A stretch of DNA of 64,000 bases from Parabacteroides distasonis (GCA_963659855.1 CAVKVK010000001.1:18850-82849); one strand, 5' to 3'. Shown: positions 30,089-58,700, counted from the first letter of the stretch. The notes: generated from the sequence alone by a model not told the origin. Translations and numbers: made by a program.

Positions 30089-30946
30089 ATGGAAGATAAG
30101 AAAGAAATTGAACTAACGAAAAAATTGCATGAGAATTTAAGTTCTTTTTGCAATGAAAAATTTTATATAGAAGCCGCAAATCTCTCGCATGATGAAATAA
30201 TAAAAAAATATGGAGATAATCCTGTCGCAATAGCAGAAATTCCTGAATCAGACCCTGTTTTTAAAGGAATTTGGAAAGACGCGAAAAGCAATCTTGTTTA
30301 TACAGGACTAGGAAGTTTTATTGACTATTGGGTAAATCATCATCCAGAGCTTGAACCGTCTGATTTTATGAAAATACAAGATGTTCTATCAAATCCTGAC
30401 AGTCGCTATTTTGACAAAACAAAGAACGCTGTTATTTTTGATAAATTTTCAGATGGACTCCATGATGTTGTGATAATGAAAAAAGCTGCGGACAAACTGA
30501 TTTATGAAAGAAGCAGCTATATGCCTAGAAAATTGCCAAAACGATGGCAAGAAATTGAACAGAAAAATGGAATTGTAAAGCAGTCATTTGTGGACGGACA
30601 CCCCACAATCAGTCAGTCAGAAAAATCTGAAGCCGGCATAGTCCGTAATATTTCTACTCTTAATGACACCAAAAATATAACACAAAACAACGAAAAGTCA
30701 ACATCAATGGAAAAAAACTCGGAATCAAGGCTTCTGTATGAAAAGACAACGGTGAATGTTGACGGCCTTTAGCGCGACTGCGAGCACGGTGTCCTGGAAG
30801 GGTTCAAGAACGCTGTGAAAATGGTTGACAGGCTGAAAGAGGAAAATTCCAATCTGAGAAGGGAAAACAGCGAGCTTTACAAAAAGCTAAAGCTGGAGCA
30901 GAAAATCCATTCAAAGAGTCATCATGAGAAGGAGATTGAAAGGTGA
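30089..30946 (+). pseudogene. PBECR-like nuclease domain plus conserved C-terminal tail, interrupted by an in-frame TAG at 30770-30772
   Basis: The frame continues after the TAG as RDCEHGVLEGFKNAVKMVDRL...EKEIER*, homologous to the C-terminus of 43516-44253. Its TGA overlaps the next start codon. Confidence 0.7.
30560..30667 (-). ncRNA. Candidate embedded antisense sRNA A
   Basis: Minus-strand TTGACT (30696-30701), 16-nt spacer, TATATT (30674-30679). Terminal stem GTCATT/AATGAC and inner stem ACGGAC/GTCCGT. Confidence 0.45.
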
Positions 30947-31377
30947 AAAACAACAGGAAAGAAAGCTATGTGAAGTACGGAGTCCTAAAGCAGCTGCGAA
31001 TGACGGAGCAGATGCAGAACCTCATAAAAAGCAAGGCTCTTGAGCACAACACGACCGAGAGCGAGATTATCCGCCAGGCACTTGACAACTACATAAACCG
31101 CAGTATGAGCGACTCCGAGATAGTGCACGCCTCTCTTGTGGAAAATTCAAGGAAAATCCGCTATCTGGAAAGCAAGGTCGAGCTTCTCGCTCTGATTGTC
31201 ATGCAGCAGACAAAATTCATCATGAAGATGTTCCCGGACAGGCAGATAAACAGCGACGAGCTTGTAGAGATTGAATATGAAAGGTTTGTCAGGGACTGCA
31301 CGAAGATTCTCAAGTCCAACCATTCAGGCATTCTTGAAAGCATGATACTTGACGCCTACGAGAAAGGAGACGACTAG
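30943..31377 (+). CDS. CopG/RHH-family protein between virD4 and virB11
   Basis: N-terminal RHH (QLRMT...KALEHNTTESEIIRQAL). Position matches the traG-copG-trbB order of P-type systems. Confidence 0.7.
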   Translation: MKNNRKESYVKYGVLKQLRMTEQMQNLIKSKALEHNTTESEIIRQALDNYINRSMSDSEIVHASLVENSRKIRYLESKVELLALIVMQQTKFIMKMFPDRQINSDELVEIEYERFVRDCTKILKSNHSGILESMILDAYEKGDD

Positions 31378-31379
31378 AA

Positions 31380-32357
31380 ATGACAGGAATGGACGGATTC
31401 GGGCAGCAGGTCAAGCTCGACAAGTGGATAAAGAACCTTGAGGACGACATGAGGCTGATTGTTCCCTTCATCGAGGACAGGAATGTGACTGACATCGCGA
31501 TCGGGATAAACGGCGAGCTTATTGTCGAGGGGCTTGGAATGGAGAAGACGTTCACAGGAATTTTCTTTGACGAGCAGACAACGACAAGAATCATCTATGC
31601 CACGGCCGCTGTTCTCGGCGTTACTGTTGACCCGGACAATCCTATTGTGGAAGGCGTTCTTCCCAACTGGAAAATCCGAGTCGAGGGAATTCTTCCGCCG
31701 CGTGCAGCGCGCAATCCGATGTACTTTATCCGCCGGCCTCCGGCAAAGATTTTCTCGCTTGAAAGCTATCTTGACTCCGGGCGGATTACAAGGGAGCGGT
31801 ACGACCTTCTTGTCGGGCATATAAAAAAACGCTCGAATATTGTCATCGGTGGCGAGACCGGAAGCGGAAAGACGACGCTCCTGAATGCGGTTATAGACAA
31901 GATGAGGGAATTCACGCCGGACGACCGCTTCTATATTGTCGAGGATGCGGGCGAGATTCAGTGCAATGCGCGCGACTTTGTTCCGATATGGGCGGCAGGC
32001 AAGGACTGCCTGAAGGCTGTCGCGACTGCACTCCGCTGCAATGTGTCGCGCATTATTTTCGGTGAGCTGCGCTACGGCGATGTAACAAACGAAGTCTTGA
32101 AGGCATGGAACTCGGGACATACAGGCGGAATCACGACAGTGCACGCAAACTGCGCGCTTTCAATGCTCTCAAGAATCCGCGACCTTCTGCGCGAGGTTAT
32201 TCCGGGCGAGCTTCCCGACGTGGCTCAGTCAGTCCAGCTTCTTGTGCACATGAGACCGACAAAAAACGGCCCTGTTGTTAGCGAGGTTGTGGAGACAAGA
32301 CAGATGGGAAGCTCATCGTTCATGGAAGACCTTGAGAGCAACAATCTTATCAGCTGA
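31380..32357 (+). CDS. virB11: T4SS ATPase VirB11/TrbB
   Basis: GGETGSGKTT, VEDAGE, IIFGELR, WNSGHTGGITTVHAN. Confidence 0.92.
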   Translation: MTGMDGFGQQVKLDKWIKNLEDDMRLIVPFIEDRNVTDIAIGINGELIVEGLGMEKTFTGIFFDEQTTTRIIYATAAVLGVTVDPDNPIVEGVLPNWKIRVEGILPPRAARNPMYFIRRPPAKIFSLESYLDSGRITRERYDLLVGHIKKRSNIVIGGETGSGKTTLLNAVIDKMREFTPDDRFYIVEDAGEIQCNARDFVPIWAAGKDCLKAVATALRCNVSRIIFGELRYGDVTNEVLKAWNSGHTGGITTVHANCALSMLSRIRDLLREVIPGELPDVAQSVQLLVHMRPTKNGPVVSEVVETRQMGSSSFMEDLESNNLIS

Positions 32358-32518
32358 AAGGAGGGTTTTAGGAAAACAGATTTTCAAGGCTTACGAACAG
32401 GAATGTTTTTATGAGGCTCGCCTCATGCACGAATAGAAATTTTTTGCCTTTTTTTGAACAGAAATTGAGAACACGAACAGGATTCTAAAATTAAACCCAG
32501 GACATAAAGGAGTATTTT

Positions 32519-32944
32519 ATGAAGTCCGAAAAAACAGAAAAAGCCGTTCAAAAAATCAAAAGCTTTGTAACAAACAGAAAAGTTCTCATGGCAGCTTTCA
32601 TGCTGTTCATGATTATAGCGCCGACATTCGCAGGAAGCAGCGGCGACACCATCGAGCAGCTTGACACATGGGGAGACAAGATTCTCTCGCTTTTGCAGTC
32701 AACATGGGTGAAGGTTCTTCTTCTTGTCGCGCTGATAATCGAGGCTATCGGCGTAGTTGTCGCGGGGCAGCAGGGCGGAGGCGGACAGATTCTGAAAAAG
32801 TTCGCTCCATGGATAATCGGAACACTGATTCTTTTGTGCTCGTCAGGAATCTGCTCTTATTTCCTCGGCGATCTGAATTTTGAGATTTCGATGGCGGAGG
32901 AAGCCATTCCAGCGGCGGAAATTTTGGTCTCAGGAATTGTGTAA
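32519..32944 (+). CDS. virB2: Pilin VirB2/TrbC
   Basis: Long signal peptide plus two hydrophobic helices; position before virB3/virB4. Confidence 0.7.
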   Translation: MKSEKTEKAVQKIKSFVTNRKVLMAAFMLFMIIAPTFAGSSGDTIEQLDTWGDKILSLLQSTWVKVLLLVALIIEAIGVVVAGQQGGGGQILKKFAPWIIGTLILLCSSGICSYFLGDLNFEISMAEEAIPAAEILVSGIV

Positions 32945-33008
32945 CAGAAAACGGTGGCAGGAGAAATCCTGCTGTCTGTATGAATCTTGATTTTTCTTGG
33001 AGGAGAAT

Positions 33009-33275
33009 TTGGAAAACGAACCTACTTTATACGACTATTCTGTTCCAGTGCACCGTGTGCTGCTCCAGCCGAATGTTGTTCTCGGAATCGGAATAGCACC
33101 GGCGATGATGATTCTTGTTCTCACGATTGTTCTGATGAACATGGTGAGCGTGTGGTGCTTCCCGATAGGAATTGTCCTTTTTGTCGCGGCGAAGATGCTC
33201 TGCAGAAACGACCCGTACATGATGACGATTCTTTTTGACAGGCTGATGCAGCCCAACTTATGGAGATCTATCTGA
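33009..33275 (+). CDS. virB3: VirB3/TrbD
   Basis: PVHRVL.QP...LG, two TMs, DPY motif. Confidence 0.8.
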   Translation: MENEPTLYDYSVPVHRVLLQPNVVLGIGIAPAMMILVLTIVLMNMVSVWCFPIGIVLFVAAKMLCRNDPYMMTILFDRLMQPNLWRSI

Positions 33276-35848
33276 TGGATGTGCCGTTTCTTGACTTTTT
33301 CAGGCTGAACAGGGAAAGCGCGAACATGCTCAAATATGTCAGTCCATACTCGTTCATAATGTCGCCTGGAGTCTGCCTCCTTAAAAACGGTGCGCTTATG
33401 ACATCGTACCAGGTTGAGTATCCAGACCTTGAGTCGTCGTCTCCGGCTTCAACTGCGGCGATGGCGGCCCTGTTCAACCGAACAACAATGGCTCTTGCCC
33501 AGCAGGAGGGATGGGCTGTTTTCTTTGACTGCAAGCGGTACAAGACAAAGGACTATCCGGCAGGTGAATTCTCAAACCTTGCAGGCTGGCTCATAGACCA
33601 GCGCCGCGCGGAAAACTACCACAATTTCGGCGAGCATTTTACGACCGACTATTACATCTCGTTTGTATACCAGCTTCCGGGAGACATCGAGAACAAGGCG
33701 ACATCGATTTTTTTCAGGAGCGGAAAGAAGAAGAGTGACGGCAGAAAGCATTCCCACGGCGTGGAAAGCCTTGCCACAATGAAGAAAGAAATTGAGAATT
33801 TCCTTGACGAGACCGACAAGGCGATGGGAACTCTGGCAACAAAAATCTGGTGCCACCGGCTTGATGACTCGGAGCTTTTCAGTTACATAAAGTCATCGGT
33901 GAGCATGAGACGGCAGGATATGTTCTATCCTGAGAACACATTCTTCTTCCTTGACAACTACATCTGCGACATGGATGTCAAGACCTCGATGCCGCTTAAA
34001 ATCGGGGACTATTATGTTCCAATAATCTCCGTGATGGATTTTCCGAGCAGCACTTATCCCGCTGTCTTTGACAAGCTGAACAGGACAATGCAGGAATTCC
34101 GCTGGACAACAAGATTCATTCCGATGGGAAAGGAGATGTCCCAGAAGGAGGCTGACAAGTACCAGAAGCGTATGTACTCAGCAAGAAAAAGTGCGGGAAC
34201 AATCATTACCGAGCTTGCCGCGAATGTCGAGATTGACCGCGAGAATTCAGGGGCTGTTGCGATGGAGGGCGAGGCAAGCCAGATTCAGGCGGACATCGCT
34301 ATGGGAAACTATGTCCTTGGATACTACACAAGCAGCCTTATGGTCTGGGACAAAAAACTTTCCGCGGCAAAGGAGAAGTCACGGAAGCTCCAGCAGGTTG
34401 TGCGCTCGTGCGGATTTGCGTGCATGGAGGAGAAGCTGAACAACATGGAGGCATGGGAAGGAATGATGCCCGGAAATGTCTATGCTAATATCCGTCGGCC
34501 TCTTATCTCCACGCAGAACATGGCGAATATCATTCCTCTAAGCTCCGCATGGCAGGGGATGCTGTACAATGACTTCACTCTTGAAACCTGCGGCTCTTCT
34601 GTTCCTCTTGTCACCTGCTCCACGAGCTACGGAACTCCGTTCTTCTTCAATCTGAACGTCCGCGATGTAGGACACTCATTTATTTTCGGGCCGACAGGAG
34701 CAGGAAAGTCAACGCTCATGGCTCTGCTTATGGCTCAGGCCACAAAATACAGGGACGCGAACATTGTCTGCATTGACAAGCAGCTGTCAAGCCGAGCGTT
34801 CATGGTCGCAGCAGGCGGAATCTATGTTGAGCCGGGAAAGGACGATGTGGCGTTCCAGCCATTGAGCGAGCTTCTGAACCCGGATGAGTGCACGGAAGGC
34901 GAATACCGCGAGAGCCTTATGTGGTGTCAGCAGTTCATAGAAAGCCTTCTTGTCCAGCAGAACATCGAGACAACTCCGAAAATGAGCAAGGCTATAAGCG
35001 AGACGCTTGTTCTTCTCTCTAAAAAAAACAGCTCAATGCACGACCTCACATCGTTCCAGCAGTACGTGAACTACACAGACCCGGACACTGACGACAACAC
35101 GATAAGGACAGGGCTTGACCCGTACTGTCGTGGCGGGGCTTTCGGCTCTATATTCGATGCGGACAGGACAACACTGAACCTTTCCAAGCTGATGACAATA
35201 GAGATGGGAAGCCTCATGCGACTTTCAGAAAAGGCAGTCGCTCCGGCTCTTATGTACATATTCCGCTATCTGGAGAAGCTCTGGACTGTTCCAAGCGGCG
35301 AGAAGCAGCCTCTGACTTTTCTTTTTCTTGACGAGGCATGGCTTTATCTCCAGCATCCGGTTTTCTCTGGATTTATCCAGGAGTGGCTCAGGACTTTAAG
35401 AAAAAAGAAAGTGTTCTGCATATTTGCGACTCAGGAAGTCAGCGCGGCGAGCAAGTCGTCGTTGCGCGACACGATAGTGCAGCAGTGCCTCACAAAAATT
35501 TATCTTGCCGACGAGAATGCGCTCTCCCTTGCGGAAAACTACAGGGATTTCGGGCTTACAGACAGCGAGATAGCCGCATTGTCAGAGGCTGTGATGAAAA
35601 GGGACTACTACTTCAAGAACCCGAACGGAAGCCGGATGTTTACCCTTGACCTTGACGCATTCCAGCTCGCACTGATTTCAAGCGACCACGAGATTCTTGA
35701 CAATCTTGAGAGCAAATACGGAAAGAACACGACAAGGGAGCTTGCCTTTGAGCTTCTTGACGCAGTCAAGGAAAAATACAAAAGAAACGGAAAAGACGCG
35801 CGCAGTCTTGACTACTCAAAATACAGGGAAATGCTTATTGCATCATAA
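33275..35848 (+). CDS. virB4: T4SS ATPase VirB4/TrbE
   Basis: DVGHSFIFGPTGAGKST, FLDEAW, WLRTLRKK, FATQ. Confidence 0.93.
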   Translation: MDVPFLDFFRLNRESANMLKYVSPYSFIMSPGVCLLKNGALMTSYQVEYPDLESSSPASTAAMAALFNRTTMALAQQEGWAVFFDCKRYKTKDYPAGEFSNLAGWLIDQRRAENYHNFGEHFTTDYYISFVYQLPGDIENKATSIFFRSGKKKSDGRKHSHGVESLATMKKEIENFLDETDKAMGTLATKIWCHRLDDSELFSYIKSSVSMRRQDMFYPENTFFFLDNYICDMDVKTSMPLKIGDYYVPIISVMDFPSSTYPAVFDKLNRTMQEFRWTTRFIPMGKEMSQKEADKYQKRMYSARKSAGTIITELAANVEIDRENSGAVAMEGEASQIQADIAMGNYVLGYYTSSLMVWDKKLSAAKEKSRKLQQVVRSCGFACMEEKLNNMEAWEGMMPGNVYANIRRPLISTQNMANIIPLSSAWQGMLYNDFTLETCGSSVPLVTCSTSYGTPFFFNLNVRDVGHSFIFGPTGAGKSTLMALLMAQATKYRDANIVCIDKQLSSRAFMVAAGGIYVEPGKDDVAFQPLSELLNPDECTEGEYRESLMWCQQFIESLLVQQNIETTPKMSKAISETLVLLSKKNSSMHDLTSFQQYVNYTDPDTDDNTIRTGLDPYCRGGAFGSIFDADRTTLNLSKLMTIEMGSLMRLSEKAVAPALMYIFRYLEKLWTVPSGEKQPLTFLFLDEAWLYLQHPVFSGFIQEWLRTLRKKKVFCIFATQEVSAASKSSLRDTIVQQCLTKIYLADENALSLAENYRDFGLTDSEIAALSEAVMKRDYYFKNPNGSRMFTLDLDAFQLALISSDHEILDNLESKYGKNTTRELAFELLDAVKEKYKRNGKDARSLDYSKYREMLIAS

Positions 35849-35873
35849 AGGCAAATCATAAAACGGAGTTCAT

Positions 35874-36839: not shown

Positions 36840-36859
36840 TGCAGACGGAGGTGTGATTT

Positions 36860-38818: not shown

Positions 38819-38829
38819 AAAAAAAGTAA

Positions 38830-38870
38830 TCTTACATAAAGACTGTTTTTTATGCAGTTTTTATGTAAGA
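38830..38870. terminator. Stem-loop between convergent operons
   Basis: TCTTACATAAAGACTG...CAGTTTTTATGTAAGA. Confidence 0.6.
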
Positions 38871-43515: not shown

Positions 43516-44253
43516 ATGGCAGATGAACGAGAAAATCTTGAGCTTTTTTCAAGGCTTGCCGCTGTTCTTGACGAGGGAACTGTCTACACGGCGAGCAATA
43601 AGATGCTTGGGGAAATTCAGCTTAGGCATGGAAACAAGTCAACCGGTCTTGTGCATATCATAAACCGCCGTTATGAGGAGCGTGTCTTAAACAAATCTGT
43701 TCAGATGCCTCTGGAGGATGCGCAGAAAGAAATCACTGCAATATGCTTTCTTGTAGCGGACAGCCTTAACAAAGGAGTTGCATCACAAACTCCACGCGGA
43801 AACTGGGAAATAGAAAAAGGCGGAATAAAAGCAATCATCAATAAAGACAGAGAAGGAAAATTTGTTCTTACAGGATTTGATGACAAGAAAAACAAGGCGG
43901 AAGCGACAGAATCCATAAAAGCGGGAATCGCAAATTATGGCTACACGCCTGAGTTTCTCGATATGTACGCTCAGGTGGGAGCTGTCATTGCTTCCTATGG
44001 GCATAGTACATCACAAACTCCACAAAAGTCAAATGAAAATTCTGGGCAGAATTTCCTTGAGGGCTGCGTAAAGATTGAAGTGAACGGCAAGGAGCGTGAA
44101 TGCAAAAACGGCGTCCTTGAGGGCTTCAAGAATGCTGTCAAGCTCGTTGACCGGCTTATGGATGTTAACCACCAGCTTGCGGACGAAAACGAAAAGCTAA
44201 GAAACCAGATTCACAATCAAAACAAAAACAAGAAAACGGACATTGAGAGGTAA
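43516..44253 (+). CDS. PBECR (barnase/colicin E5-like) nuclease-domain protein with conserved C-terminal tail
   Basis: G...GLVHII..R...FVLTGFD. Paralogous to the 57240-57640 domain. Ends KKTDIER. Confidence 0.6.
   Translation: MADERENLELFSRLAAVLDEGTVYTASNKMLGEIQLRHGNKSTGLVHIINRRYEERVLNKSVQMPLEDAQKEITAICFLVADSLNKGVASQTPRGNWEIEKGGIKAIINKDREGKFVLTGFDDKKNKAEATESIKAGIANYGYTPEFLDMYAQVGAVIASYGHSTSQTPQKSNENSGQNFLEGCVKIEVNGKERECKNGVLEGFKNAVKLVDRLMDVNHQLADENEKLRNQIHNQNKNKKTDIER
43885..43998 (-). ncRNA. Candidate embedded antisense sRNA B (three-stem junction)
   Basis: TTGACT (44027-44032), 16-nt spacer, TGTACT (weak -10). Stems GGAAGC-GACAG/CTGTC-GCTTCC, CCATAA/TTATGG and CCTGAG/CTCAGG. Confidence 0.5.
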
Positions 44254-48200: not shown

Positions 48201-51200
48201 ATATCGATTGTGGAATTGGTATCAATATTAAAGGTGATACAGTTTTTGATGATGAATGGGCAAAAGGTCTAACTGTTCTTGTTCGTGCAGATGGAAAAGA
48301 TACATTAAATATTTACGGTGCTATAGCCGTAAAAAGACTTAGTGAAAACAACCAGCACTCATTAAATGTTCTTTCTGCTTTTGAAAATCTTTACAATGCG
48401 GCAAAAGAAGCAGGTCTTGAAATTGAAGACGCTCCATACATTGAAGAAAAGAAACAGGAACTTGCAATCACGTCAAATTCGTTTGAGTCAGTTCTTGAAG
48501 AAAAAAATGTTGATAACGTTTCTGAAGAATATTCTCCAAAATATCCTGAATATGCAAAAAATCGTTTTGTGCTGGAAACTGGACACAAAGACGGCTGGGC
48601 TATAAATAACAATCATCTTGTAATATGGGATAAACTTTTGAATCGAAGCGCTCGTTCTGGCGGATTTTTTAATAATGAACAGGGAAGAGCCGCTGGTGAA
48701 AAAGAACTTGCAGAAAAAATAGAAGCAGTCGCAAAAGAAGAAAACGCAGCACTTGAAAGAACCTATGAAGGCAATGGTGTTTATTCTTGCCAGTTGCATA
48801 GACCTTATACAATTACAGATACAAGAGCCACCACTCACGAAATGTTTTTTGTGGAATTAAAAAATATTTCTGATAAAACTTCTGGTCTTATTGTATCGGG
48901 AATACGAGAAAGCGAAACTGGAATGATAAAAAATGATGCAATAAATTTTGCTAAAGAAATTGACTATAGTTTTGAGCAAGGAACTTGCATTAAATTCAAT
49001 CCTGTAGACCTTTATAAAACGGCAGCCCAAGTAGCAAGCCAAGAAAACATCAATCTGACAAAAATAGCTATTCTTGCAGAAAAAATGGGAACACAGATTG
49101 TTGTGCAGGAAGGCGACGACATATCAAGATATGCGTTTGCATTGGATTTTGCAAAGAAACACAATCTTCCAGTTTATTTTGAGGATAATGAAATAGCACA
49201 CAAGATTGCCGAAAATATTGCTGATGTAAAATTCTTTCAGAACCAGTCAGACTTGATTAAGCTGCTAGAAAATACTGAACAGCAAAATAAAAACGAACAG
49301 TCCAAGAAAAAATCATCAAAATCCAGCCAGAAAAAAATCCGCGAGCAGTGCCGTGAGATTCTCAAGAAGCCTGATTCTGAAATCACCGAAGATGACAAGA
49401 AGATTCTTGCCCAATACGAGGGCGGTGGCGGGCTTGATGAGGAGAAACGCACAAATGCGGAAGTCCTCAACGCTTTTTATACGCCGGGCAGCCTTATAGA
49501 TAAGGTCTGGACTCTTGTTGACGCTTATGCTCCGGATGCAAAATCTGTCCTTGAGCCGTCAGCTGGAGTCGGACGTTTTGCAAAAGACCGGCCGGACAAT
49601 GAATTCACAATGTATGAGCTTGACGAGACTTCCGCAAGAATCAACAAAATTCTTCACCCGGAAGCGAATGTGATTCAGGGTGCTTTCCAGAAGCAGTTCC
49701 TTGATGACGGCGAGCGTTTCCTTAAAATCGGATACGAGCAGCCTAAGCATGATGTTGTAATCGGAAACCCGCCTTATGGAAAATACAACGACAAGTATAA
49801 AGGTCTAGGCGAGGGAAAAGAATTTGACCGCTATGAGGAATATTTCATTTCACGTGGACTGGAAGCCCTCAAAGATGAAAAATCTGTTCTTGCGTTTGTT
49901 GTTCCGTCAGGATTTCTAGACACTGCCGATGACAGGCAGAAGAAAATCATCGCCTCAAAAGGTGAAATTTTAGACGCATACAGGCTGCCGGAAGGAACTT
50001 TTGAGACAACAGAAGTCGGAACTGACATTCTGATTATGCGGAAAAAAGAAGGCATTGACGATAGGGAAAATATTTCCAGCGAGCTTTTGTCAAACGGAGA
50101 ATGGTTCAAGAACCATCCAGAGAAAATCTTGGGCGAAGTGAAAACCCGCACAAACCGGTTCGGAAAGGAAGAAAAGTATGTCGCAGCCCACGAGGGGCTT
50201 TCCATCCAGGAAGAACTGAACAAGATTGACAGTTTTGTTGCTGATATAAAAAAGGCTAATCAGACTGAAAAATCAAAAGAACCAGAATTCAGTTCTGCAG
50301 AGAAAAAAACAGAAATCATTTCAAGCCCGGAAGTTCTTACAGATGAATTTGCTGAAAATATTACCAATTTTAAAAATTCTCTCAACAGCTATTTTGAGAA
50401 AGGAATTCGCCCGGAAAACGACCGTTTTGTAATCGGACAAACTCCTCTTGTTCTACAAAAAATTGGCAGTGATGTTACAGAGGTTACTGTTCCAGTATCT
50501 GTAATAAAAAAGTCAGTAGAAACTCACGGATTATCACAAGATGAAATCTTCAGTTCGGTTGCAAAAATGTATAATCCAGTTCTTGTTTTTGATTCAGATA
50601 AGACTGCGACAGAAAATAAGGTAGATTCAAAACTTATTCTTACAGATGTGTTCAAGGATGAAAACCCTATTGCACTTGCGGTCAACACAAATTCCACGGT
50701 TGATATAAACAATCGAGGTTTGACAATTGAAGTTCAAGATATTCGTTCTATTCACGACAGAACTCTAATTGCAAAAAATGGAACTGATTTGATTCAGAAA
50801 TGGACAAATGACGGACTTTGCAGATATGTGAACGACAAAAAAATATCCGATTGGAGTACCGTCGCAAGGGTACAATTCCCTGTTGAGCTCCTCCAATCGG
50901 ATAGTCAAAATATACTCACAAACTCTGCTCTTGTCAACAGTAATTTCTCAGAACAAGCCCAGTTTAAAGAAAGTGAAAAGACAGAGCCTAAAAAACAAGA
51001 ATCCCCAGACATGAAAAAAAGAAGGCGGAATATCTCAAAGAAAAAGGGCGATGTCATGAACTCAGAGGAATTCTCCCATCTGTACGGACGCGACTTTGAC
51101 GAGCGAGAATTTCCAATCTGGAAGGCGACAGACTGGCAGGGCAATATCGACCTCTCAAAACTTTCCAGCGGTGACATTCAGTATCTTTCTGAAAGCGGAA

Positions 51201-54200
51201 AATATGTTGAGAAGAACATCGGCGAATGGACCCACAGGGAGCTTTTTGCTAGCGGCGATATTTATGAAAAACTCCAGGAACAAAGAGAGCTTCTTGAAAA
51301 ATCCGGCGGAAACCAGATTTTTGCGGATAACATACGGCTGCTTGAATCAATAAAAAAAGAGCCGCTTGAAATTTCCAGAATTCACTTTGGCGTGAAGACA
51401 TCTCTCGCCGAAAGCTTCAATATTGGGCATATCGATGCGGAAGGAAACAAAGTCGAACTGAATCTTCAGGAATCATTCATTCTTTGGGCGCAGAATTCGA
51501 GACTTTCAGACCAGAAATGGAGGGGCGACATTGACTTTGCGACAGCGAATATCTCGCGCGAGGAGCTTGGAGAGGAACTCGGCTTCTATGACATCGTGAA
51601 CTACATAGACGGAAAGCCTGTGAAGGCGGAAGCTGTCAGAGGCTGGCGCACTTGGGATATGAACGAGGAAGAGAAGGCTGCTGAAAAAGCGGAGCGCAAA
51701 AAGGAAGCCGACTTGAAACGACAGGCAAGAAGCGACACTGCAAACAGGCTTTTTGACCGTTATATCCACGAAGGACTTTCTGAACCTGACAAGGCAAGGC
51801 TCTCTTCTGAATACAACCGCCGGTTCAACTCTTACGTAGCACCTGACTACTCAAAGCTGCCTCTTTTTGTTGACGGAATGAGCGCATACAAGGGCGAGTC
51901 AAAATTCAAACTGTACGACCAGCAGATAAAAGGAATCTCATTCCTTTGCAACAAGGGAAACGGAATTCTCGCCTATGATGTCGGAGTCGGAAAAACAGCC
52001 GCTGGAATTGTCGCGACAGTGAACCAGATTCAGACAGGAAGAAGCAAACGGCCGCTTATCATTGTTCCGAACCAGGTCTATTCAAAATGGTATACAGACA
52101 TAAGGCAGCTTTTCCCGAATATAAAAGTGAACGACCTCTATAATTTCGGGAAAGATTCTGTTGAAAAATATATTGACCCTAAAAATCCTCACTGCCTGAA
52201 TATTCCAGAAAACTCAATTTCGCTGTGCACATACGAGGCTTTGAAGAATATCACTTTCAACGACGAGTCCTGCGAGAACGAGCTTTATGAGGATTTCTCA
52301 AGTCTTCTGAGCGCGGACATGGACGGAAGCACAAGGAACAATGCTGAAAACTCCGACAAAATCAAGGGTGTAATCGGTGCCGCAAGCCATGTAAAGGACT
52401 CTGGATATTTCTTCTATGAGGACTGCGGGTTTGACAATCTTACAGTGGACGAGGCGCACAACTTTAAGAATCTGTGGGTAGTCCCACGCCCAAAGAAAAA
52501 GGGCGAGTCAAACGAGTATGCAGGAATTCCAAGCGGAAAACCGTCCTCTCGCGCGCTGAAAATGTATGGAATGACGCAGCTGACACAGCGGCACAACGAC
52601 GACAGGAATGTGTTCATGCTGACAGCGACTCCGTTCTCAAACAGTCCGACAGAAGTCTACACAATGCTTTCCTATGTCGGCCGTGAGCGCTTGAAGCAGG
52701 CAGGAATCACTTCGCTTCGCACATTCTTTGACGAATTTGCACAGACAAAGCAGGAACTTGGCGTAACCTCAGCCGGAAACATCGACACAAAGCAGGTTAT
52801 GAAAAGCTGGAAGGAACTTTCCGCACTGCAGAATATTCTTACAGAATTTATTGACAAGGTTGACGGCGAGGAAGCTGGAATAATTCGCCCGAACAAATTC
52901 ACACACGTGAAGCCTCTTGATATGTCTGACCTGCAGAAAGAAATGCGCGAGATTGATGAAGAGCGCATGGCAGAAATAAAAGAAGGCAACAGCGCGGCTG
53001 TGATTGTCGCAATGAACAATATGCGGCTTTCCTGCGTCGCTCCGGCTCTTGCGAATCCGGCTATGTATCCTGGCATTGAGCTTCCTCCGCTTTCAAAACT
53101 TGTCGAAACTTCTCCAAAACTGAAATTTGTATGCGATGCAATAATCGATATGTACAAGGGCAACCCAGAAAAAGGTCAGTTCATGTATGTTCCGCTTGGA
53201 AAAGAAAGCCACGGAATCATAAAGGATTACCTTATTGCGCACGGAGTGCCAAAGGAAGCCGTAGAAATCATAAATGGAGAAGTTAACAATACGCCGGAAA
53301 AGAAAGAGAAAATCACTTCCTGCTTCAATGACGAGAAAAATCCGTGCAAAATCATTATCGGAGGACGGAACACAGCCGAAGGAATCGACCTTAACGGAAA
53401 CAGCTTTGTCATGTACAACTGCTCGCTTGGCTGGAATCCGAGCGAGACAATCCAGGCGGAAGGAAGAATCTGGAGGCAGGGCAACCTTCAGGGAAATGTC
53501 CACATTGTCTATCCTGTAATGAATGATTCAATTGACTCTGTCCTTTACCAGAAGCACGACGAGAAGCGAAGCCGCATAAACGAGCTTTGGAATTACAAGG
53601 GCGATTCTCTTAATGTGGAGGACATCAATCCGGAAGATCTGAAGCTTGACCTTATAAAAGACCCGCAGAAGAAGGCTAAGCTTATCTTGCAGGAAGAAAC
53701 AAAGGAAGCCCGTGCGGAGCTTTCAAAACTGAACCTAAAAATCAGGTCTTTTGACGAGATAATTGAAAAGCGCAAACAGCTTGAGCTTGACTTCTCGAAT
53801 GCGAAGGAATCCGTTGACTATCGGAAGAATCAGATAGAGTCCTATAAAGAAAGCGGTCTTGATGTTCCTGAATGGATAAAGTCAGAGATTAAAGACTGCA
53901 ACAAGAAATTTGCAAAGGCAGAAACAAGTCTTGAAAAAGTCAATGAAAAACTTCTCTCTCTTAAAATCACGGATCCAGAGAAAGAAACGGAATATATCCA
54001 CAGCTTAAACAGTCAGAGGCACGCCTGCGAGGAAAAAATTAGACATACAAAAATGACCCTGCCGCAGATTCTGAAAAAACTGGAGATAGAACGGATGGAG
54101 CAGAAACTCATTGAATATCCTGTTGAGAAACAGCGAGAAATTCTTGAGGCGGATATTCTGAACAATCTCCGGCCGATGAAAGAGGTTGAATATGAGATTA

Positions 54201-55771
54201 AGACAATGCGCCATGAGGCTATGCTTTCAGAAAAACTCAAGGCCGGTGAAATCTCTAGGAGTGATTACGAGCTTTACAAAAATGCCGGATATGAAAAATA
54301 TGAGAAATGGCTGAACGGCGAGATTGAATCGCTGGAAGAAACCACTGTAAAAGATGAGGTTTCCAATGTGGCTGCTGAAGTGATTTCAGGACAAGACAAG
54401 ACTGTATCTGTTCAAAACGAAAATGTCCCAGAAAATCCAACAGTAAAAAATCCTGAGCTGAAAGACCTGAAAAAAGCCACTGAAAAAACAGAGCCTGAAA
54501 AGCAGGAGAACCAAGAAATGAATTCATTCTACTCAGACCCAGGAAGCCTTTTCTTTGACTCCAAGTTTGCCGTGCACTCGATTGAAAACGAATACAGAAA
54601 ATCCGCTCCGTATGACGACTTCTTGATAACAGAACGCCAGCTTACAGAATCAGAGATGAAGCGCGACGAGATAATATTCCCGGTTCTTAACGGAAAAGAG
54701 ACAGGAATGTACAAGGCTTTCAAGGATTTTGCCGAGCATGGTGTTTTTGACATCCAAGGAAAGCATGTTGAGCTTGACGATTCAGGAAGAATTTCCCAGA
54801 CAGGCTGGAATCAGCTTCAGTCAGCGATGGAAATCTACAGAAACAAGCAGTTCGAGACATTCCGCTATGTTCTCATTGACCATGAAAACGGAGAGATAAA
54901 GGACCAGCTTGCAGTAAAGTCGTATTCTCCAAACAGTTGCGCTCTCACTACACCTGACTTAAAGACAATAAAGCAGGTCTTGACGCGCGCAGAGGAGCTT
55001 GACTGCATGATTGTGGCGGTTCACAACCATCCGAGCGGAAATACAGCTGAAAGCTCGTTTGATGTGAAAACGACTGAATCCTTGATGAGAAACTGCACAA
55101 AGGAAAACGGATTCTGCCGTTTTGCAGGACACATAATTCTTGACCACGACACGTTCAACCTTTACACGCCAGAAAACGGATGGAACGAAAAACTGAATTC
55201 AAATGCCTATGAAAATCTTGAGGATGAGCTACTGAACAGTAATTTCGTATTCTCAAAGGATTATGTCGGATATACCTGGCAGCTTGAAAATGTCGCAAGG
55301 AAGATAAACGACAGGAACAACTGGAATGACAATTTTATTCCTGTTGTCTTTGCTGATTCAATGAACAAGGTTTCTGGAATCAAGCTGTACGACAAGTCAT
55401 TTTTTGACAACGAGCCTCAGAAAATTAGAAACGAGCTTCAGTTCTCAGGTCTTGAGGCGAATTCTGTAAAGGCGTTCCCAGTCATCACAAAGAATTTTGC
55501 GGAAACGATGTCAGCTGTTGACGAGCTTCTTTTCGAGGACAAGCTGAAAAATCTTGTGGAGAACAGCGCGTTCATAGACGCAGCCTTGCCGGAATCAACT
55601 GTAACGGAAAAATTCAACATTCTTCCTGGAAGACAATACTTTGATGTCCACAGTGCGAAGATGAGAAATCCAGACATCGAGGCGACCTGGCAGACAAGAA
55701 TAAATCCGGCGCTTTTCAGCGAGCCGGAACAGAATGTAATGCGCAAAAAAGAAGTCGCATTTGAAAGATAA
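45221..55771 (+). CDS. Giant polyvalent DarB-like protein: DUF2958-like, N6-adenine MTase, MuF-C-like nuclease, SNF2 helicase and JAB/RadC domains
   Basis: AEWGYLNLDEL (~46200); VLEPSAGVGRF (~49550) and GNPPY (~49765); IGQTP...HGL...IRSIH (~50430-50760); GVGKT, DEAH, TATP, QAEGRIWRQGN; HNHPSG...D...HII (~55020-55140). Confidence 0.85.
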   Translation: MANIHFEIFDNADFGNKNIRFSEAPAQEQRDFLKQNGYSFTTQYGGVWYPRTQEAKDRNADFVNEFAEKFYPETSKKTQSDMIDQIAKQALEKNSAENDSHSNDDRIAYLENLIAELKEERRHDLERISRLEAALENQNEKDTRLEMQIEQDELNSEAEWEKENTLTDEEENAYIEKQSETNIFSEKIEITSGMMDALYEAAEKESMSDEPQAEKEILHGQEEPDEDDLTVSPKELAAAKSVLPTVQYVSTLKFAQGEEREFFVHKIKEIAAAVENAPKINETDGLEEHRIVLRYFHPSGTQSFVTEIGRDGNAYGFQCLNDDWENAEWGYLNLDELKNIRGMEVDFHVPAGMTVEKFIQKENAEQYSAENETSEIPNEARITWNDILQVAEGSHWNDEANSVYNNARNQLAEYAKNLGVDIENSESPEESAETFAAAHGEISFSKDGSLVIDEIENSSARDLEKKGNHEKPVSEFSADEASRLSEEKYGFYFEYSDDEEVADIYSAKDGDFVGSYGEDGFGYADDLSGNAPSTKIPDENFREVLELAEIFYHKKSEEYENLIEAENGQMMTSAEAYEWNEEQKMQHSQENDEREAEEANKDFELTKRLNEIVSEIKNSDFTLESKYENGKHEIVLINKDGAEIFSARENDNIVIPVEHTIAAWANDEASEKAKSLADEFFNLVCEDKIRGGDYVNAVFKKEETEISQKEIEQEKASIQRKIQQLKDELNNPDNQKGGAYYDEQQDSQVKEYLETLENLTDEDIKNQILWKKETQKENQETHNRVVEQMMEEKEKNETPQEGELFSYNEKNPIYSVGNKETQTETAIQPTGNLSENVKKLGSLKTISEADDIIEKIKSSGFDILSTESRIIIFDEDKYYDFNRATSYFNYETKKIEFDLDRRNLNEWDFRDYIKNGLKITKRMKDFAKIENRNVSEEEKAIDKTEKNQAAAENPETNYFVKSTAEFSQFEDFKPITGLTADEAVAKYSELQQQNIDCGIGINIKGDTVFDDEWAKGLTVLVRADGKDTLNIYGAIAVKRLSENNQHSLNVLSAFENLYNAAKEAGLEIEDAPYIEEKKQELAITSNSFESVLEEKNVDNVSEEYSPKYPEYAKNRFVLETGHKDGWAINNNHLVIWDKLLNRSARSGGFFNNEQGRAAGEKELAEKIEAVAKEENAALERTYEGNGVYSCQLHRPYTITDTRATTHEMFFVELKNISDKTSGLIVSGIRESETGMIKNDAINFAKEIDYSFEQGTCIKFNPVDLYKTAAQVASQENINLTKIAILAEKMGTQIVVQEGDDISRYAFALDFAKKHNLPVYFEDNEIAHKIAENIADVKFFQNQSDLIKLLENTEQQNKNEQSKKKSSKSSQKKIREQCREILKKPDSEITEDDKKILAQYEGGGGLDEEKRTNAEVLNAFYTPGSLIDKVWTLVDAYAPDAKSVLEPSAGVGRFAKDRPDNEFTMYELDETSARINKILHPEANVIQGAFQKQFLDDGERFLKIGYEQPKHDVVIGNPPYGKYNDKYKGLGEGKEFDRYEEYFISRGLEALKDEKSVLAFVVPSGFLDTADDRQKKIIASKGEILDAYRLPEGTFETTEVGTDILIMRKKEGIDDRENISSELLSNGEWFKNHPEKILGEVKTRTNRFGKEEKYVAAHEGLSIQEELNKIDSFVADIKKANQTEKSKEPEFSSAEKKTEIISSPEVLTDEFAENITNFKNSLNSYFEKGIRPENDRFVIGQTPLVLQKIGSDVTEVTVPVSVIKKSVETHGLSQDEIFSSVAKMYNPVLVFDSDKTATENKVDSKLILTDVFKDENPIALAVNTNSTVDINNRGLTIEVQDIRSIHDRTLIAKNGTDLIQKWTNDGLCRYVNDKKISDWSTVARVQFPVELLQSDSQNILTNSALVNSNFSEQAQFKESEKTEPKKQESPDMKKRRRNISKKKGDVMNSEEFSHLYGRDFDEREFPIWKATDWQGNIDLSKLSSGDIQYLSESGKYVEKNIGEWTHRELFASGDIYEKLQEQRELLEKSGGNQIFADNIRLLESIKKEPLEISRIHFGVKTSLAESFNIGHIDAEGNKVELNLQESFILWAQNSRLSDQKWRGDIDFATANISREELGEELGFYDIVNYIDGKPVKAEAVRGWRTWDMNEEEKAAEKAERKKEADLKRQARSDTANRLFDRYIHEGLSEPDKARLSSEYNRRFNSYVAPDYSKLPLFVDGMSAYKGESKFKLYDQQIKGISFLCNKGNGILAYDVGVGKTAAGIVATVNQIQTGRSKRPLIIVPNQVYSKWYTDIRQLFPNIKVNDLYNFGKDSVEKYIDPKNPHCLNIPENSISLCTYEALKNITFNDESCENELYEDFSSLLSADMDGSTRNNAENSDKIKGVIGAASHVKDSGYFFYEDCGFDNLTVDEAHNFKNLWVVPRPKKKGESNEYAGIPSGKPSSRALKMYGMTQLTQRHNDDRNVFMLTATPFSNSPTEVYTMLSYVGRERLKQAGITSLRTFFDEFAQTKQELGVTSAGNIDTKQVMKSWKELSALQNILTEFIDKVDGEEAGIIRPNKFTHVKPLDMSDLQKEMREIDEERMAEIKEGNSAAVIVAMNNMRLSCVAPALANPAMYPGIELPPLSKLVETSPKLKFVCDAIIDMYKGNPEKGQFMYVPLGKESHGIIKDYLIAHGVPKEAVEIINGEVNNTPEKKEKITSCFNDEKNPCKIIIGGRNTAEGIDLNGNSFVMYNCSLGWNPSETIQAEGRIWRQGNLQGNVHIVYPVMNDSIDSVLYQKHDEKRSRINELWNYKGDSLNVEDINPEDLKLDLIKDPQKKAKLILQEETKEARAELSKLNLKIRSFDEIIEKRKQLELDFSNAKESVDYRKNQIESYKESGLDVPEWIKSEIKDCNKKFAKAETSLEKVNEKLLSLKITDPEKETEYIHSLNSQRHACEEKIRHTKMTLPQILKKLEIERMEQKLIEYPVEKQREILEADILNNLRPMKEVEYEIKTMRHEAMLSEKLKAGEISRSDYELYKNAGYEKYEKWLNGEIESLEETTVKDEVSNVAAEVISGQDKTVSVQNENVPENPTVKNPELKDLKKATEKTEPEKQENQEMNSFYSDPGSLFFDSKFAVHSIENEYRKSAPYDDFLITERQLTESEMKRDEIIFPVLNGKETGMYKAFKDFAEHGVFDIQGKHVELDDSGRISQTGWNQLQSAMEIYRNKQFETFRYVLIDHENGEIKDQLAVKSYSPNSCALTTPDLKTIKQVLTRAEELDCMIVAVHNHPSGNTAESSFDVKTTESLMRNCTKENGFCRFAGHIILDHDTFNLYTPENGWNEKLNSNAYENLEDELLNSNFVFSKDYVGYTWQLENVARKINDRNNWNDNFIPVVFADSMNKVSGIKLYDKSFFDNEPQKIRNELQFSGLEANSVKAFPVITKNFAETMSAVDELLFEDKLKNLVENSAFIDAALPESTVTEKFNILPGRQYFDVHSAKMRNPDIEATWQTRINPALFSEPEQNVMRKKEVAFER
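50837..50903 (-). ncRNA. Candidate embedded antisense sRNA C
   Basis: TTGACA (50932-50937), 17-nt spacer, TATATT (50909-50914). Perfect 13-bp terminal stem 50844-50856/50891-50903, followed by U7. Confidence 0.65.
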
Positions 55772-55791
55772 ATTTTTACCTGGAGAAAAAC

Positions 55792-58700
55792 ATGGACGAA
55801 AAAAATAAAAAAAAGCAGAAAATCGCGGAGCTGATTTCAGTGATAAAGAAAGCGAAGGGAATTGATTCAGAAATTACATCTGAAATTATTGACAACGGAG
55901 TAGAGTCCGTTATGGAAAACAGCGGAATGTCTGAGGCTGCAATGGAAGCGGACTATGAGGCTGAACAGAATTCAAGACCAGACTATCTTGACGAGAATGG
56001 CAATCCTCACTGGTTTGATGAGGAGGAAGAAAATATTGTCCTTGATGACGATGAAATAATGAGTCTTGATTTCCTTAACGACAACAAGGAAACGTTCAAG
56101 GCAATTGATGATTATCTGGATAAAGGGATAAGACCGAAAAATAATGAGTTTGTTTTTAATGCGATTCCAGCTGTTTTTGATTATGCAGAAATTCCTGCGA
56201 ATGAAATTGTTTTGACAACAGAAGTGCTCAATAAGGCTATAAAAACCCACAATCTTTCAAATGATGATATAAGAATTGCTTTGCAAAAATTTTCTAGTCC
56301 TGTTGCTATTTTTGATTCTGATATGAATAAAACGGAAAACAGCAGTGCTTCAATTATGGCAATAACTGATGTCGAGGCAGAAAACAACAAGGCAATTGCA
56401 TTGTCATTGAATCTTGACAGTCAGCGAAAAGGGGATGAGCAAAAATATCTTATAAACGAAATCCGCGGTATTCATGACAGAACTTTAATTGCGAAAAACG
56501 GTGTAAATATTGCTGAAGAATGGTCAAAAAACGGACTTTTAAGATATGTTGATGATAAAAAAATATCCAATCTTGGAAAGGAAAGAGAGGATTCATTCCT
56601 CTTGCCCCTTGCAAAACTGGATATAGATAATGTAAAGACTTATTCAGATTTTATCAATCAGCATAATATTGTTGCGGAAAATGAAAGGGAATATCATAAA
56701 GCGGAAAATTTTTCTGCCCGTATGTTTACATACAACGACTTTAATTTTGTCGCTGTCAGAAAATTTTCAGAAGAAGAAAGAACTTTTGTGGATTCTATTG
56801 TTTCTAATGAACAGAATAAAAAACTCCTCTCAAAAAATGCTTTATATTATGCAGGCTATATTGAAAGTCAGAAGCCAGTTGCAGAGCAGAAATTTGAAAA
56901 AGCCTTAAAAGTTTTCAATAAGGAAGACTTTTTGCATACTTCAAAATTTGACGCAGATATTTTCTATTGCCGAGAAAAAGGAACTTTTTATACAGCCTTG
57001 AACAATGATTTTCTTGTTCCGCTTGAATTTGTTTATAACTCTGATAGACAGGAAAAAGATGTTTTTGAAAACCGTTTTTCTGATGAGATTGAATCGTTCC
57101 GAAACGATAATTTTGATTTTCTAAAAGGCACATTGTCTTCTGAGTTTGACGAGGAAAAGGACTTTGCGCTTATGTCCGATATTTCAGATGTTCTTTCGGA
57201 AGGTGAGGTTTTTACAAGAAAAAATGTGAATATTGACGGCGATATAAAAATAAAACTTGGAGATTTATTCGACAAGAAGAATCCAGGGAAAATTCAGCCG
57301 ACAGGGCTACGTCATCTTATAAAACACAGAATGGAAGAACGCTTAAATAATGGGTTTTCAATGGAAGAAGCTCAGAAAGAAACTGCAGCTGTTCTTTTTC
57401 TTGCCTTGAACAACATTGACAAAGCACCTGCTGTAAAAGAGCAAAATGGAAGATATGCTATTTACAAAGACGGAATCAAAACTTTAATCGGAAAAGATAA
57501 AAAAGGGAAATTCGTTGTAAGTGGATTTGATTATGCGGATACAAAACGTGAGGCGACCGATTCCATAGGTACGGGGATCGCTCGCTATGGATACACGCCT
57601 GGCTTTCTCGAAATATACGACCAGGTGGGCGCAGTCGCTTCTGAATTAAATATACAAAAGAAAAATTCCGTTGTCAATGATAAAGCAGATGAAATAAAAC
57701 AACAGAATGAAAGCGCCTTTGACAATGCCGTTAAAAATCGTTTTGAGTCAGCGGCGAAGAAGCTTACTTCCCTCGATATAAACTCTGAAAACTACAAGGA
57801 GGCGTTCGAGCTTCTGAACAGAATTGAGAAGCTGACAGGAATATCAGAACCTGCTGAAAAGATTGACCTTCCAGAAATGAATTTGAACGAAGACTTTGAA
57901 CCTTCTCCAAATGTAAGAACTCCAGAAGAATTTGAAAGAGTAAAAAATGGAATTGACAATATAAGACTTGCTGATGAATCTGAAATTCAGCCGGTACAGC
58001 CTGTTTTTGAAACTAAAACTGAATCTGTAGAAAACGGCAATCAGGCAGAAAAAACTAGCCCTGAAGAAAATACAGAAATTCAAATGAAAAATGTTTCCTA
58101 TCAGGATTACGCCGCTGGAAAAGTCATATATGGAAAGACAGTTCTTCCTCCGTTTGCCTCGATTACTTCTGACGGTCATCTAAAAACCTGCGAGAATTTT
58201 GTTGTAAAAAGCTACGACAGTGAAAGCGGAACATACTTGGTTGAAAACGAAAATGAAAAACTTTCTCTGCCGCATGAAACTTTCAATTCTCTTTTAAATC
58301 CGGCAAGCCTGTACAAGGAGCATCAGGAAGAAAAGATATTCCGAATGGAAGGAAACGGAATTGTGTTTGACAATCCTGGAAAAGGAGTGAAGGGGACTGT
58401 TATCCCAGAATTTTCTCTTATGACGCAGAACGGATTGCAGACCTACAAAGATTGTGTTGTTACAAAATTCAATGAGAGCGACAGGACCTACACATTGCGG
58501 AACAACGACAGCGCTATTTCTGTTACGGAAGAGCGTTTCAAGGAAATCACCTCGCCAGAACGTTTTGAGAATAACTTCGATGAGAATACTCCGGCCTACA
58601 AGAAAATGCTCAAGACTCAATATGAGGATTTTTTCAAGGAACGCAAGAATACATCGTACAATTTCAGGCACAACTTGTCTGTGTTTTGCCGAAAAGAGGC

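Follow-up and report, generated by a model that had tools for sequence, protein, structure and literature searches.

Predicted antisense RNA genes embedded in the RNase modules of a spirochaete conjugative element

How does a cell that carries a conjugative element keep the RNase domains of that element under control? The question is raised by a stretch of 64,000 nucleotides (CAVKVK010000001.1:18850-82849, assembly GCA_963659855.1), referred to here in its entirety as the window and numbered from its first letter. The window belongs to a conjugative element, carried in a spirochaete genome of 2.4 Mb, and encodes five predicted RNase modules—two MuF_C, two PBECR1-type and one PBECR3-type—beside which Pfam and PADLOC searches of the module proteins and their neighbours recognised no immunity-protein family. 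The original prediction, made from the sequence of the window, held that each module carries on its opposite strand a promoter and a structured small RNA, which would silence the message of the module or bind the nuclease as a tRNA-like decoy. Comparison with homologues now bears out the first part of this proposal: each BECR-type RNase module carries an antisense promoter and a structured RNA as one cassette. The alignments show constraint at the nucleotide level, base pairing and a shared architecture; by the same comparisons, unit and RNase domain are inherited together, and the units are probably genuine small-RNA genes. The simplest interpretation is antisense control of the message that encodes the RNase, with both the production of the RNA and its action inferred; we put the probability that each RNase module contains an antisense RNA gene acting in cis on the RNase message at roughly one half.

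All five minus-strand promoter-like sites were found where they had been predicted, scoring 9-11 of 12 positions against the sigma-70 consensus with hexamers and spacings of the sigma-70 type. The five predicted units are as follows.

30527..30701, minus strand: antisense unit 1, in ORF (open reading frame) 30089; promoter 30701..30674, TTGACT-16-TATATT, 10/12, with TG before the -10 box; -35 box TTGACT at 30701-30696, TG-extended -10 box TATATT at 30679-30674, +1 at ~30667
43886..44032, minus strand: antisense unit 2, in ORF 43516; promoter from 44032, TTGACT-18-TACTAT, 9/12; -35 box TTGACT at 44032-44027, -10 box TACTAT at 44008-44003, +1 at ~43996
50837..50937, minus strand: antisense unit 3, in the MuF_C module of a 3516-aa polyvalent protein; promoter 50937..50909, TTGACA-17-TATATT, 11/12; -35 box TTGACA at 50937-50932, -10 box TATATT at 50914-50909, +1 at the A at 50902
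56557..56657, minus strand: antisense unit 4, in the MuF_C module of ORF 55792; promoter 56657..56629, TTGATA-17-TACATT, 9/12; -35 box TTGATA at 56657-56652, -10 box TACATT at 56634-56629, +1 at the A at 56622
57541..57677, minus strand: antisense unit 5, in the second module of ORF 55792; promoter 57677..57649, TTGACA-17-TATATT, 11/12; -35 box TTGACA at 57677-57672, -10 box TATATT at 57654-57649, +1 at the A at 57642

For unit 2, a -10 box TGTACT at spacing 16 had been proposed; that sequence does occur, although without the A at -10 position 2, and TACTAT at spacing 18 is read instead. The base 7 nt after the -10 box is an A in all five units. This predicted start coincides with the foot of a stem much as had been expected: in units 3, 4 and 5 the A is at or next to the first base of the stem, and in unit 2 the start falls one base before it, the exception being unit 1, where the long stem begins 8 nt downstream of the A (30667).

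The predicted RNAs end, in most units, in the manner of intrinsic terminators. Unit 3 has a 13-bp stem (50903-50891 with 50856-50844) around an inner hairpin AGGG..CCCU, and unit 4 a 12-bp closing stem that includes G-U pairs (56623-56612 with 56575-56564); directly after the stem, each has the U7 run that had been noted for two of the units (50843-50837 and 56563-56557), both runs arising from the codons AAA AAA A(TA) of K-K-I. Unit 1 (predicted RNA ~140 nt) finishes with a terminator-like hairpin at 30550-30533 and then UUUUCU, and unit 2 (~110 nt), closed by pairing of GGAAGC..GACAG (from 43995) with CUGUC-GCUUCC (43909-43899), has a U-rich tail to ~43884. The closing stem of unit 5 (~100 nt) joins GAAGCGAC (57641-57634) to GGUCGCCUC (57558-57550) and its tail is weak, with U4 only (ACGUUUUGU). 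The lengths thus measure ~60-65, 100-110 and 140 nt, somewhat outside the 65-110 nt first given. An automatic detector of closing stems and U-runs missed units 1, 2, 4 and 5, because their U-runs were below its threshold or an internal T-rich stretch came first. Compared with shuffled sequences, folding is strong in units 3 (z score -4.9) and 4 (-4.5) and moderate in unit 2 (43890-43998, -2.7). A covariance model, R1, scores units 3 and 4 at 124.9 and 87.8 bits. No Rfam family covers the units, the sole match in 30000-58500 at E up to 1 being an unrelated chance match at 54045.

How unusual are such promoter-like sites? Matches of 9/12 are frequent in the window (119 on the minus strand and 99 on the plus, 218 in total), so that the two units scoring 9/12 prove nothing by themselves. 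The only two 11/12 sites on the minus strand of the window, in contrast, belong to units 3 and 5. Five distinct minus-strand sites in the window fit the strict pattern TTGACn-16..18-TAnnnT; four of them stand at the ends of RNase domains and none at the other domains of the polyvalent ORFs, and the exact pattern TTGACA-17-TAnnnT occurs 57 times on both strands of the whole 2.4-Mb genome (0.012 per kb). All five -10 boxes begin at codon position 1, and units 3 and 4 occupy homologous, ungapped positions of paralogous modules, so these two count as one event and protein constraint had to be excluded. The fifth strict site (27770, minus strand, TTGACA-17-TAGACT) lies in the gap between ORFs 26028-26672 (minus) and 27923-30070, and may be the promoter of the minus-strand genes at 24235-26672.

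Relatives of the MuF_C units came from 17 loci in genomes and 26 in metagenomes, yielding 39 distinct sequences; with protein identities of 29-89%, these loci are not near-identical recent copies. Thirty-five sequences entered a test of synonymous change (L017 and L041 were left out for indels, L042 and L043 for length). Where two sequences share a residue, their codons were identical in 0.80 of cases within the element (A-run to -35 box, 33 columns) against 0.54 in the upstream domain (135 columns; Mann-Whitney p = 1e-9), and codon identity of at least 0.95 marked 11 of the 33 element columns and 1 of the 135 upstream. The codons so fixed are rare in the genome: GTC for Val (7.7%), ATA for Ile (15.8%), TCC and TCG for Ser (5.5% and 8.5%) and AGG for Arg (5.4%). 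The Val is invariably GTC, and the preceding residue may be L, I, V or F while its codon always ends in TT, which spells TTGACAA on the minus strand; the boxes are constant, in contrast to the codons of the spacer that separates them. Among 36 distinct relatives, the -35 box is TTGACA in 35, and the -10 pattern TAnnnT, the U7 run and a purine (A or G) 7 nt after the -10 box are present in all. Homology between MuF_C paralogues ends just past the -35 box.

Base pairing is maintained in the same 36 sequences. In a structure of 13 + 4 pairs, 93.1% of cells pair, compared with 31-53% when partners are slid, and 11 of the 17 pairs show changes on both sides; none of 500 shuffles reached the observed values, in a control that ignores relatedness here and in the PBECR1 family alike. 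One pair changes from AGG..CCT to GGG..CCC, an R-to-G replacement matched by a synonymous Pro codon (22 A-U, 14 G-C and 0 mismatches across the set), and another from GAT..CAA to GAA..CAT, entailing D to E and Q to H, with differing peptides in between. Wobble pairs lean to one strand, with 36 cells that are G-U on the minus strand compared with 18 A-C cells, whose plus-strand counterparts would be G-U.

An independent family of modules tells a similar story. For PBECR1, 30 distinct modules were recovered from 21 of 401 genomes of the order and 29 were aligned, L047 being omitted for sharing the tail peptide of L045. Their five-helix structure pairs in 86.1% of cells, compared with 37-50% when slid, and double changes are seen in 16 of 28 pairs, values that 0 of 500 shuffles reached; the outer helix is under-counted, as six W57-type rows are one codon short and out of register. 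Minus-strand G-U cells again outnumber A-C cells (77 vs 32). Aligning homologues and looking for covariation, as the original prediction had proposed, therefore finds covarying stems in both families, with the compensatory pair changes expected of structured non-coding RNA. Synonymous codon identity in PBECR1 is 0.68 in the element and 0.51 upstream (p = 3e-5; 25 of the 30 modules, 3 being left out for stops and 2 for want of upstream sequence). The best minus-strand promoter score in PBECR1 tails averages 9.7/12, against controls of 7.75 for coding sequence upstream and 7.83 for the tail read on its plus strand; 25 of 30 tails score at least 9 and 14 of 30 have a TG-extended -10 box. Across PBECR1 and PBECR3 tails, two reading frames encode the core of the -35 box, GTCAA, one reading it as V-N (spacing 17) and the other as K-S (spacing 16): the tail peptide N-I-x6-V-N gives TTGACA-17-TATATT, while N-I-[ST]-Q-x3-K-S gives TTGACT-16-TGnTATATT, with the TG of the extended -10 supplied by the Gln codon. 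Lys codons located before the 3' arm of the closing stem provide the U-tracts. At canonical PBECR1 places in the Treponema lineage, most show the unit with a weaker -35 box. For PBECR3, four relatives were found (L075, L076, L077 and L085), which keep TTGACT or TTGATT, a 16-17-nt spacer and TATAxT or GATAAT; upstream, where their codons are unrelated, L077 and L085 have different strong terminator hairpins, each followed by a U-run.

A set defined without reference to the motif was obtained from Pfam MuF_C matches, which mark 26 places in 17 of 401 genomes of the phylum, 24 of them outside the window. Exact TTGACA-17, followed by TAnnnT or GATAAT, stands just after the domain at 23 of these 24, the exception being a pseudogene. 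The set spans subfamilies with unrelated tail peptides and includes a locus, L098, in which the motif follows the stop codon. When sequence was folded from the predicted start to the first U-run, 20 of 25 units formed a closing stem between 5' and 3' ends (median 57 nt, mean z -3.4). The R1 model also finds divergent units within the phylum. It matches three places in each of the loci L088 and L109, as though several units or remnants of domains were clustered there, one in a region that contains stop codons.

Further afield, a profile search of 1.84 billion proteins returned 394 MuF_C relatives. Named phage and plasmid records were reached only through a distant homologue from this search, P0091; tblastn with the MuF_C module of the window and a PBECR1 module gave no match in plasmids or phages, and scans of viral contigs with the MuF_C alignment and with distant homologues gave no confirmed relative. 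In the polyvalent gene of the Stx2 phage vB_EcoP_24B, the homologous place holds a closing stem of 11 bp, the inner hairpin GGGC-AAUUGAA-GCCC and a U5 run (z -4.5), kept with differing amino acids. A plasmid gene of Acinetobacter baumannii has TTGACT-16-TAATAT, a closing stem with a U-G pair that exists on the minus strand only, an inner GGGC..GCCC hairpin and U5, again with differing amino acids. R1 does not reach the Escherichia coli, Acinetobacter or Opitutaceae loci, whose likeness rests on position, fold and U-run judged by eye, and Rfam has nothing on the Stx-phage locus. That locus (L118, HM208303.1 54712-54800) lies in a 2808-aa polyvalent gene annotated in E. coli as an LPD38 domain protein, and a 261-base stretch around its hairpin is matched in 424 of 5426 complete genomes.

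The case for a cassette is therefore made by several lines of evidence together: suppressed synonymous change, rare fixed codons, compensatory stems, the strand bias of G-U pairs, a -35 box written in two frames, terminator hairpins that differ among divergent homologues and the 23 of 24 Pfam-defined MuF_C places. The three RNA folds are unrelated, and what they share comes down to a promoter on the antisense strand, a start at or close to the base of a stem, and a terminating stem with a U-run behind it. Such a combination looks like a transcription unit, and the orientation of promoter and terminator, together with the G-U bias, points to the minus strand.

On this basis, we favour antisense control of the RNase message, along the following lines. 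Each unit would sit opposite the last 20-45 codons of a MuF_C, PBECR1 or PBECR3 module, with the -10 and -35 boxes of a sigma-70-type promoter in the codons just past the domain. Transcription would start at a purine ~7 nt downstream of the -10 box and would be terminated by the U-tract in Lys codons of the domain, giving an RNA of 57-140 nt whose 5' and 3' ends would meet in a long closing stem in MuF_C and PBECR1 units, or which would end in a separate terminator hairpin in the PBECR3 unit. Once transcribed, such an RNA would be perfectly complementary to the 3' part of the RNase-coding message and could act as a cis antisense repressor, the duplex leading to cleavage or block of the mRNA; no intact RNase domain would be made, and the toxin-like module would stay under control in a cell carrying the element.

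Several observations weigh against this account. The RNAs are predictions, a search of sequencing runs for 50300-51300 having turned up no RNA data set, and antisense silencing is a proposed mechanism. The MuF_C structure pairs almost as well on the plus strand (90.2% of cells vs 93.1% on the minus), and the paired cells are not phylogenetically independent. Folding of unit 5 (57535-57642, z -1.2) and unit 1 (30527-30667, z -1.4) does not rise above shuffles; for unit 5, the support comes from homologues. Three of the 11 canonical PBECR1 places above the Pfam cut-off (L121, L125 and L141) have no clear unit. Distant MuF_C tails keep the motif [NKSR][IV]L...D[ILF][VF][NK], so that part of the promoter overlaps a protein motif and protein constraint contributes; the alternations N/K/S/R (codons starting with A) and N/K (AAx) in this motif are nevertheless what a constraint on DNA would be expected to give. 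Outside the phylum, the Stx-phage locus has an intact hairpin and a promoter-like site of only 8/12 (TTGCGA-17-TATTTT), and an Opitutaceae plasmid keeps TTGACA with a poor -10 box; these weak promoters beside an intact hairpin imply that the hairpin may be older or more general than the promoter.

The alternative that survives best, though we find it doubtful, is that the folded RNA acts on the RNase domain itself in the way of a type III antitoxin, bound there as an inhibitor or pseudo-substrate, so that the donor is protected and protein delivered without the RNA is active. Selection on the fold rather than on sequence alone would suit such a role, as would the constant company of an RNase-type domain (no unit stands at other polyvalent domains) and the lack of a recognised immunity-protein family. 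Type III antitoxins, however, are tandem, co-directional and processed by their toxins, whereas these units are single, antisense and embedded; moreover, three domain families come with three unrelated folds, and the inner loop varies in size (7 nt in unit 3, 5 nt in unit 4). The tRNA-like decoy of the original prediction is disfavoured on inspection, as the inner loop has no U at the U33 position and varies in size.

It is improbable, in our judgement, that the structure works instead on the sense strand or as DNA—as an mRNA hairpin after an A-run that slows or shifts ribosomes, a processing mark or a folding aid—with the promoter-likeness a by-product of an AT-rich conserved peptide. The near-equal plus-strand pairing of MuF_C units speaks for it, and the plus-strand fold of 43890-43998 is more stable than the minus (z -3.6 vs -2.7), the Stx-phage homologue keeps its hairpin beside a weak promoter-like site, and the tail peptide is conserved in distant relatives. 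Unit 4, for its part, folds to -27.3 kcal/mol on the minus strand vs -21.4 on the plus. This alternative has to contend with G-U pairs that favour the minus strand in both families, with a -35 box kept in two frames with different peptides and even past the stop codon of L098, and with a Val that is always GTC after a codon always ending in TT, against the codon bias of the genome. The constant boxes around a variable spacer and the unrelated terminator hairpins of PBECR3 homologues also tell against it. Frameshift signals usually leave a spacer of 5-9 nt before the stem; here the stem directly abuts the A-run, and a frameshift signal is for that reason disfavoured.

Transcriptional interference, in which polymerase bound or firing at the embedded promoter and stopped at the terminator dampens a long polyvalent gene, with the RNA a by-product, strikes us as improbable. 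It fits a promoter, start and terminator packed into 60-140 nt and boxes that are the most invariant part of the unit, but leaves unexplained the covariation of the internal PBECR1 helices 3-5 and the restriction of the unit to RNase domains. That there is no nucleic-acid function at all—only chance, AT-rich linkers, paralogue ancestry and protein constraint—is very unlikely: the abundance of 9/12 matches and the homologous positions of units 3 and 4 would allow it, and it is contradicted by synonymous change suppressed against codon bias, compensatory changes with synonymous partners, the two-frame -35 box, the 23 of 24 in the set defined by Pfam alone and the divergence of the homologous loci.

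The predicted units invite comparison with several known systems. FinP (against traJ), CopA and RNA I are cis-antisense RNAs of plasmids that lie over the 5' leaders or ribosome-binding sites of regulatory or replication genes. The predicted units resemble them in specifying short (~60-110 nt) stem-loop RNAs, each with its own sigma-70 promoter and intrinsic terminator, opposite a target on a conjugative element and perfectly complementary to its message. They differ in lying wholly inside coding sequence, over the final codons of an enzyme domain that is itself internal to a multi-domain protein, and in occurring once per RNase module in three unrelated sequence families.

Among type I toxin–antitoxin systems, txpA/RatA and bsrG/SR4 of Bacillus prophage-like elements have antisense RNAs that overlap the 3' end of the toxin gene, and hok/sok is a further case; type I toxins are small, mostly membrane peptides with short genes of their own. 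The units share with these an antisense RNA opposite a toxin-like gene on a mobile element, and a 3' overlap that would be expected to trigger cleavage of the message. Here, however, the target is a predicted BECR-fold RNase domain of 100-200 aa in proteins of 227-3516 aa, and promoter, RNA and terminator all fall within the toxin's own codons; with no small toxic peptide, the resemblance is one of mechanism only.

In type III systems (ToxIN and CptIN), tandem RNA repeats lie upstream of the toxin gene in the same direction, are cut by the toxin and bind it in protein–RNA rings. The common ground is a predicted endoribonuclease and a structured non-coding RNA on mobile DNA; the units here, being single and antisense rather than co-directional, do not belong to that type, as far as can be said without a tandem-repeat search of the window. 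Frpo promoters in the leading regions of plasmids form their -35 and -10 boxes inside a hairpin folded by the single strand as it enters. In both cases, a hairpin accompanies the promoter elements of conjugative DNA, but the boxes described here are outside and upstream of it, sequence beyond the -35 box is not conserved, and the hairpin also occurs in a double-stranded DNA phage. An origin of transfer (oriT) or single-strand promoter is disfavoured by that phage hairpin and by the position of the boxes.

Should the RNAs be made, they would represent a class of hidden small-RNA genes that annotation cannot see, since promoter, RNA and terminator all lie inside coding sequence, and would give the widespread PBECR and MuF-C modules a regulatory or protective partner, so far undescribed. 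Part of what passes for protein conservation at the C-terminus would then be conservation of RNA or promoter, making these domains a clear instance of dual coding. Since a polyvalent gene of Stx-converting phages has the same hairpin, the question can be approached in E. coli, a model organism for which public transcriptomes exist. The antisense signature (TTGAC, 16-17 nt, TAnnnT, closing stem, U-run) offers a means of locating such modules and delimiting them.

A bolder and more tentative proposal is that PBECR-type RNases injected by phages and conjugative elements carry their immunity as an antisense RNA gene in their last codons. On the same tentative footing, the cassette of toxin and RNA antidote may be ancient and common to spirochaete conjugative elements, E. 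coli Stx phages and Acinetobacter plasmids. If true, this would explain why these toxin-like domains come without immunity proteins, and it would constrain C-terminal protein sequence, such as the GLQLPK and ...V-N/K motifs.

PBECR and MuF-C domains have been described, alone and in polyvalent proteins, in elements with type IV secretion systems (Iyer et al., 2017; PMC5512222), and the host domains of the window fit that description in setting and in both forms. The parts of that paper at our disposal treat the domains as proteins only and describe no RNA partner, so that the antisense units mark a difference; 'antisense' occurs 0 times in the available text of Iyer et al. (2017), and likewise 0 times in the available text of a 2026 BECR preprint survey. 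A literature search for antisense RNA with MuF, polyvalent protein or BECR returned nothing relevant by title or abstract. Within these sources, we found no prior description of antisense RNA genes embedded in RNase domains.

The element encodes a VirD4-type coupling protein, VirB4, VirB6/TrbL and VirB11-like proteins, and ArdC-N-like proteins. Its 3516-aa polyvalent protein comprises methylase, MuF_C, SNF2 helicase and RadC domains, and the 1157-aa product of ORF 55792 holds the second MuF_C domain of the window. The five modules lie as follows.

30089..30772, plus strand: ORF 30089, PBECR3-type predicted RNase, 227 aa, recognised via homologues
43516..44253, plus strand: ORF 43516, 245 aa, PBECR1-type domain at aa 30-126, PBECR1 16.5 bits
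50504..50848, plus strand: MuF_C domain of the 3516-aa protein, aa 1762-1876, Pfam MuF_C 61.9 bits
56230..56568, plus strand: MuF_C domain of ORF 55792, aa 147-259, Pfam MuF_C 53.1 bits
57214..57528, plus strand: PBECR1-type domain, second module of ORF 55792, PBECR1 15.8 bits

The domain names first given to these modules are right, directly for MuF_C and by way of homologues for the others. Both MuF_C copies, which are 36% identical and align without gaps through the tail, pass the gathering score of 27.6 (PF18819) with their 61.9 and 53.1 bits. Both PBECR1 copies, at 16.5 and 15.8 bits, fall under the PF18809 cut-off of 27.6, while their homologues L057, L062, L071 and L073 reach 30.4-36.0 bits across nearly the whole profile; ORF 43516 and aa 453-630 of ORF 55792 are paralogues, 38% identical. 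ORF 30089 itself has no Pfam match, but its homologue L077 (36% identical) scores 33.5 bits for PBECR3 against a cut-off of 30, and L075 scores 15.8. The RNase function of the modules is a prediction carried over from the family annotation, to the extent that the source at hand sets it out (PMC5512222).

Two results bear on the claim that no immunity ORFs flank the modules. No such family was recognised, and PADLOC gave zero matches for the module proteins and their neighbours; a 144-aa ORF at 30943-31377 (plus strand), directly 3' of ORF 30089, contains a stretch, TESEIIRQALDNYI, that looks ribbon-helix-helix-like by eye, no family search having been made. ORF 30089 ends at an in-frame TAG (30770-30772), beyond which the frame remains open to 30946, and in L075, a homologue with 84% identity, the open frame extends over 283 aa; the copy in the window may reflect a nonsense truncation, a sequencing error or a read-through site.

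Some further features of PBECR-type proteins emerged from the same loci. In a 315-aa protein (L078 and L080; L127), an additional unnamed domain, IERATGRQLVTVNPTRANGK, lies downstream of the PBECR1 domain and has its own antisense TTGACT-16-TATATT, an RNA of ~130 nt and a terminator GCCCGA..UCGGGC followed by a U-run. L124 (G180:C57) is a free-standing 172-aa PBECR1 gene with a convergent 11/12 site, TTGACA-17-TATATT, ~190 nt past the domain and beyond the stop codon; between gene and promoter, there seem to be two similar stretches of ~50 nt, possibly a repeat-type RNA partner. Finally, the window at 30690-30772 and 44030-44253 and the loci L078, L079, L080 and L084 have a common C-terminal module after the embedded promoter, EKSTS.E.SSES.LLYEKTTVNVDGLERECGHGV, which is 74-84% identical between otherwise unrelated small PBECR-type proteins and which, at a guess, serves as a transfer signal or oligomerisation part.

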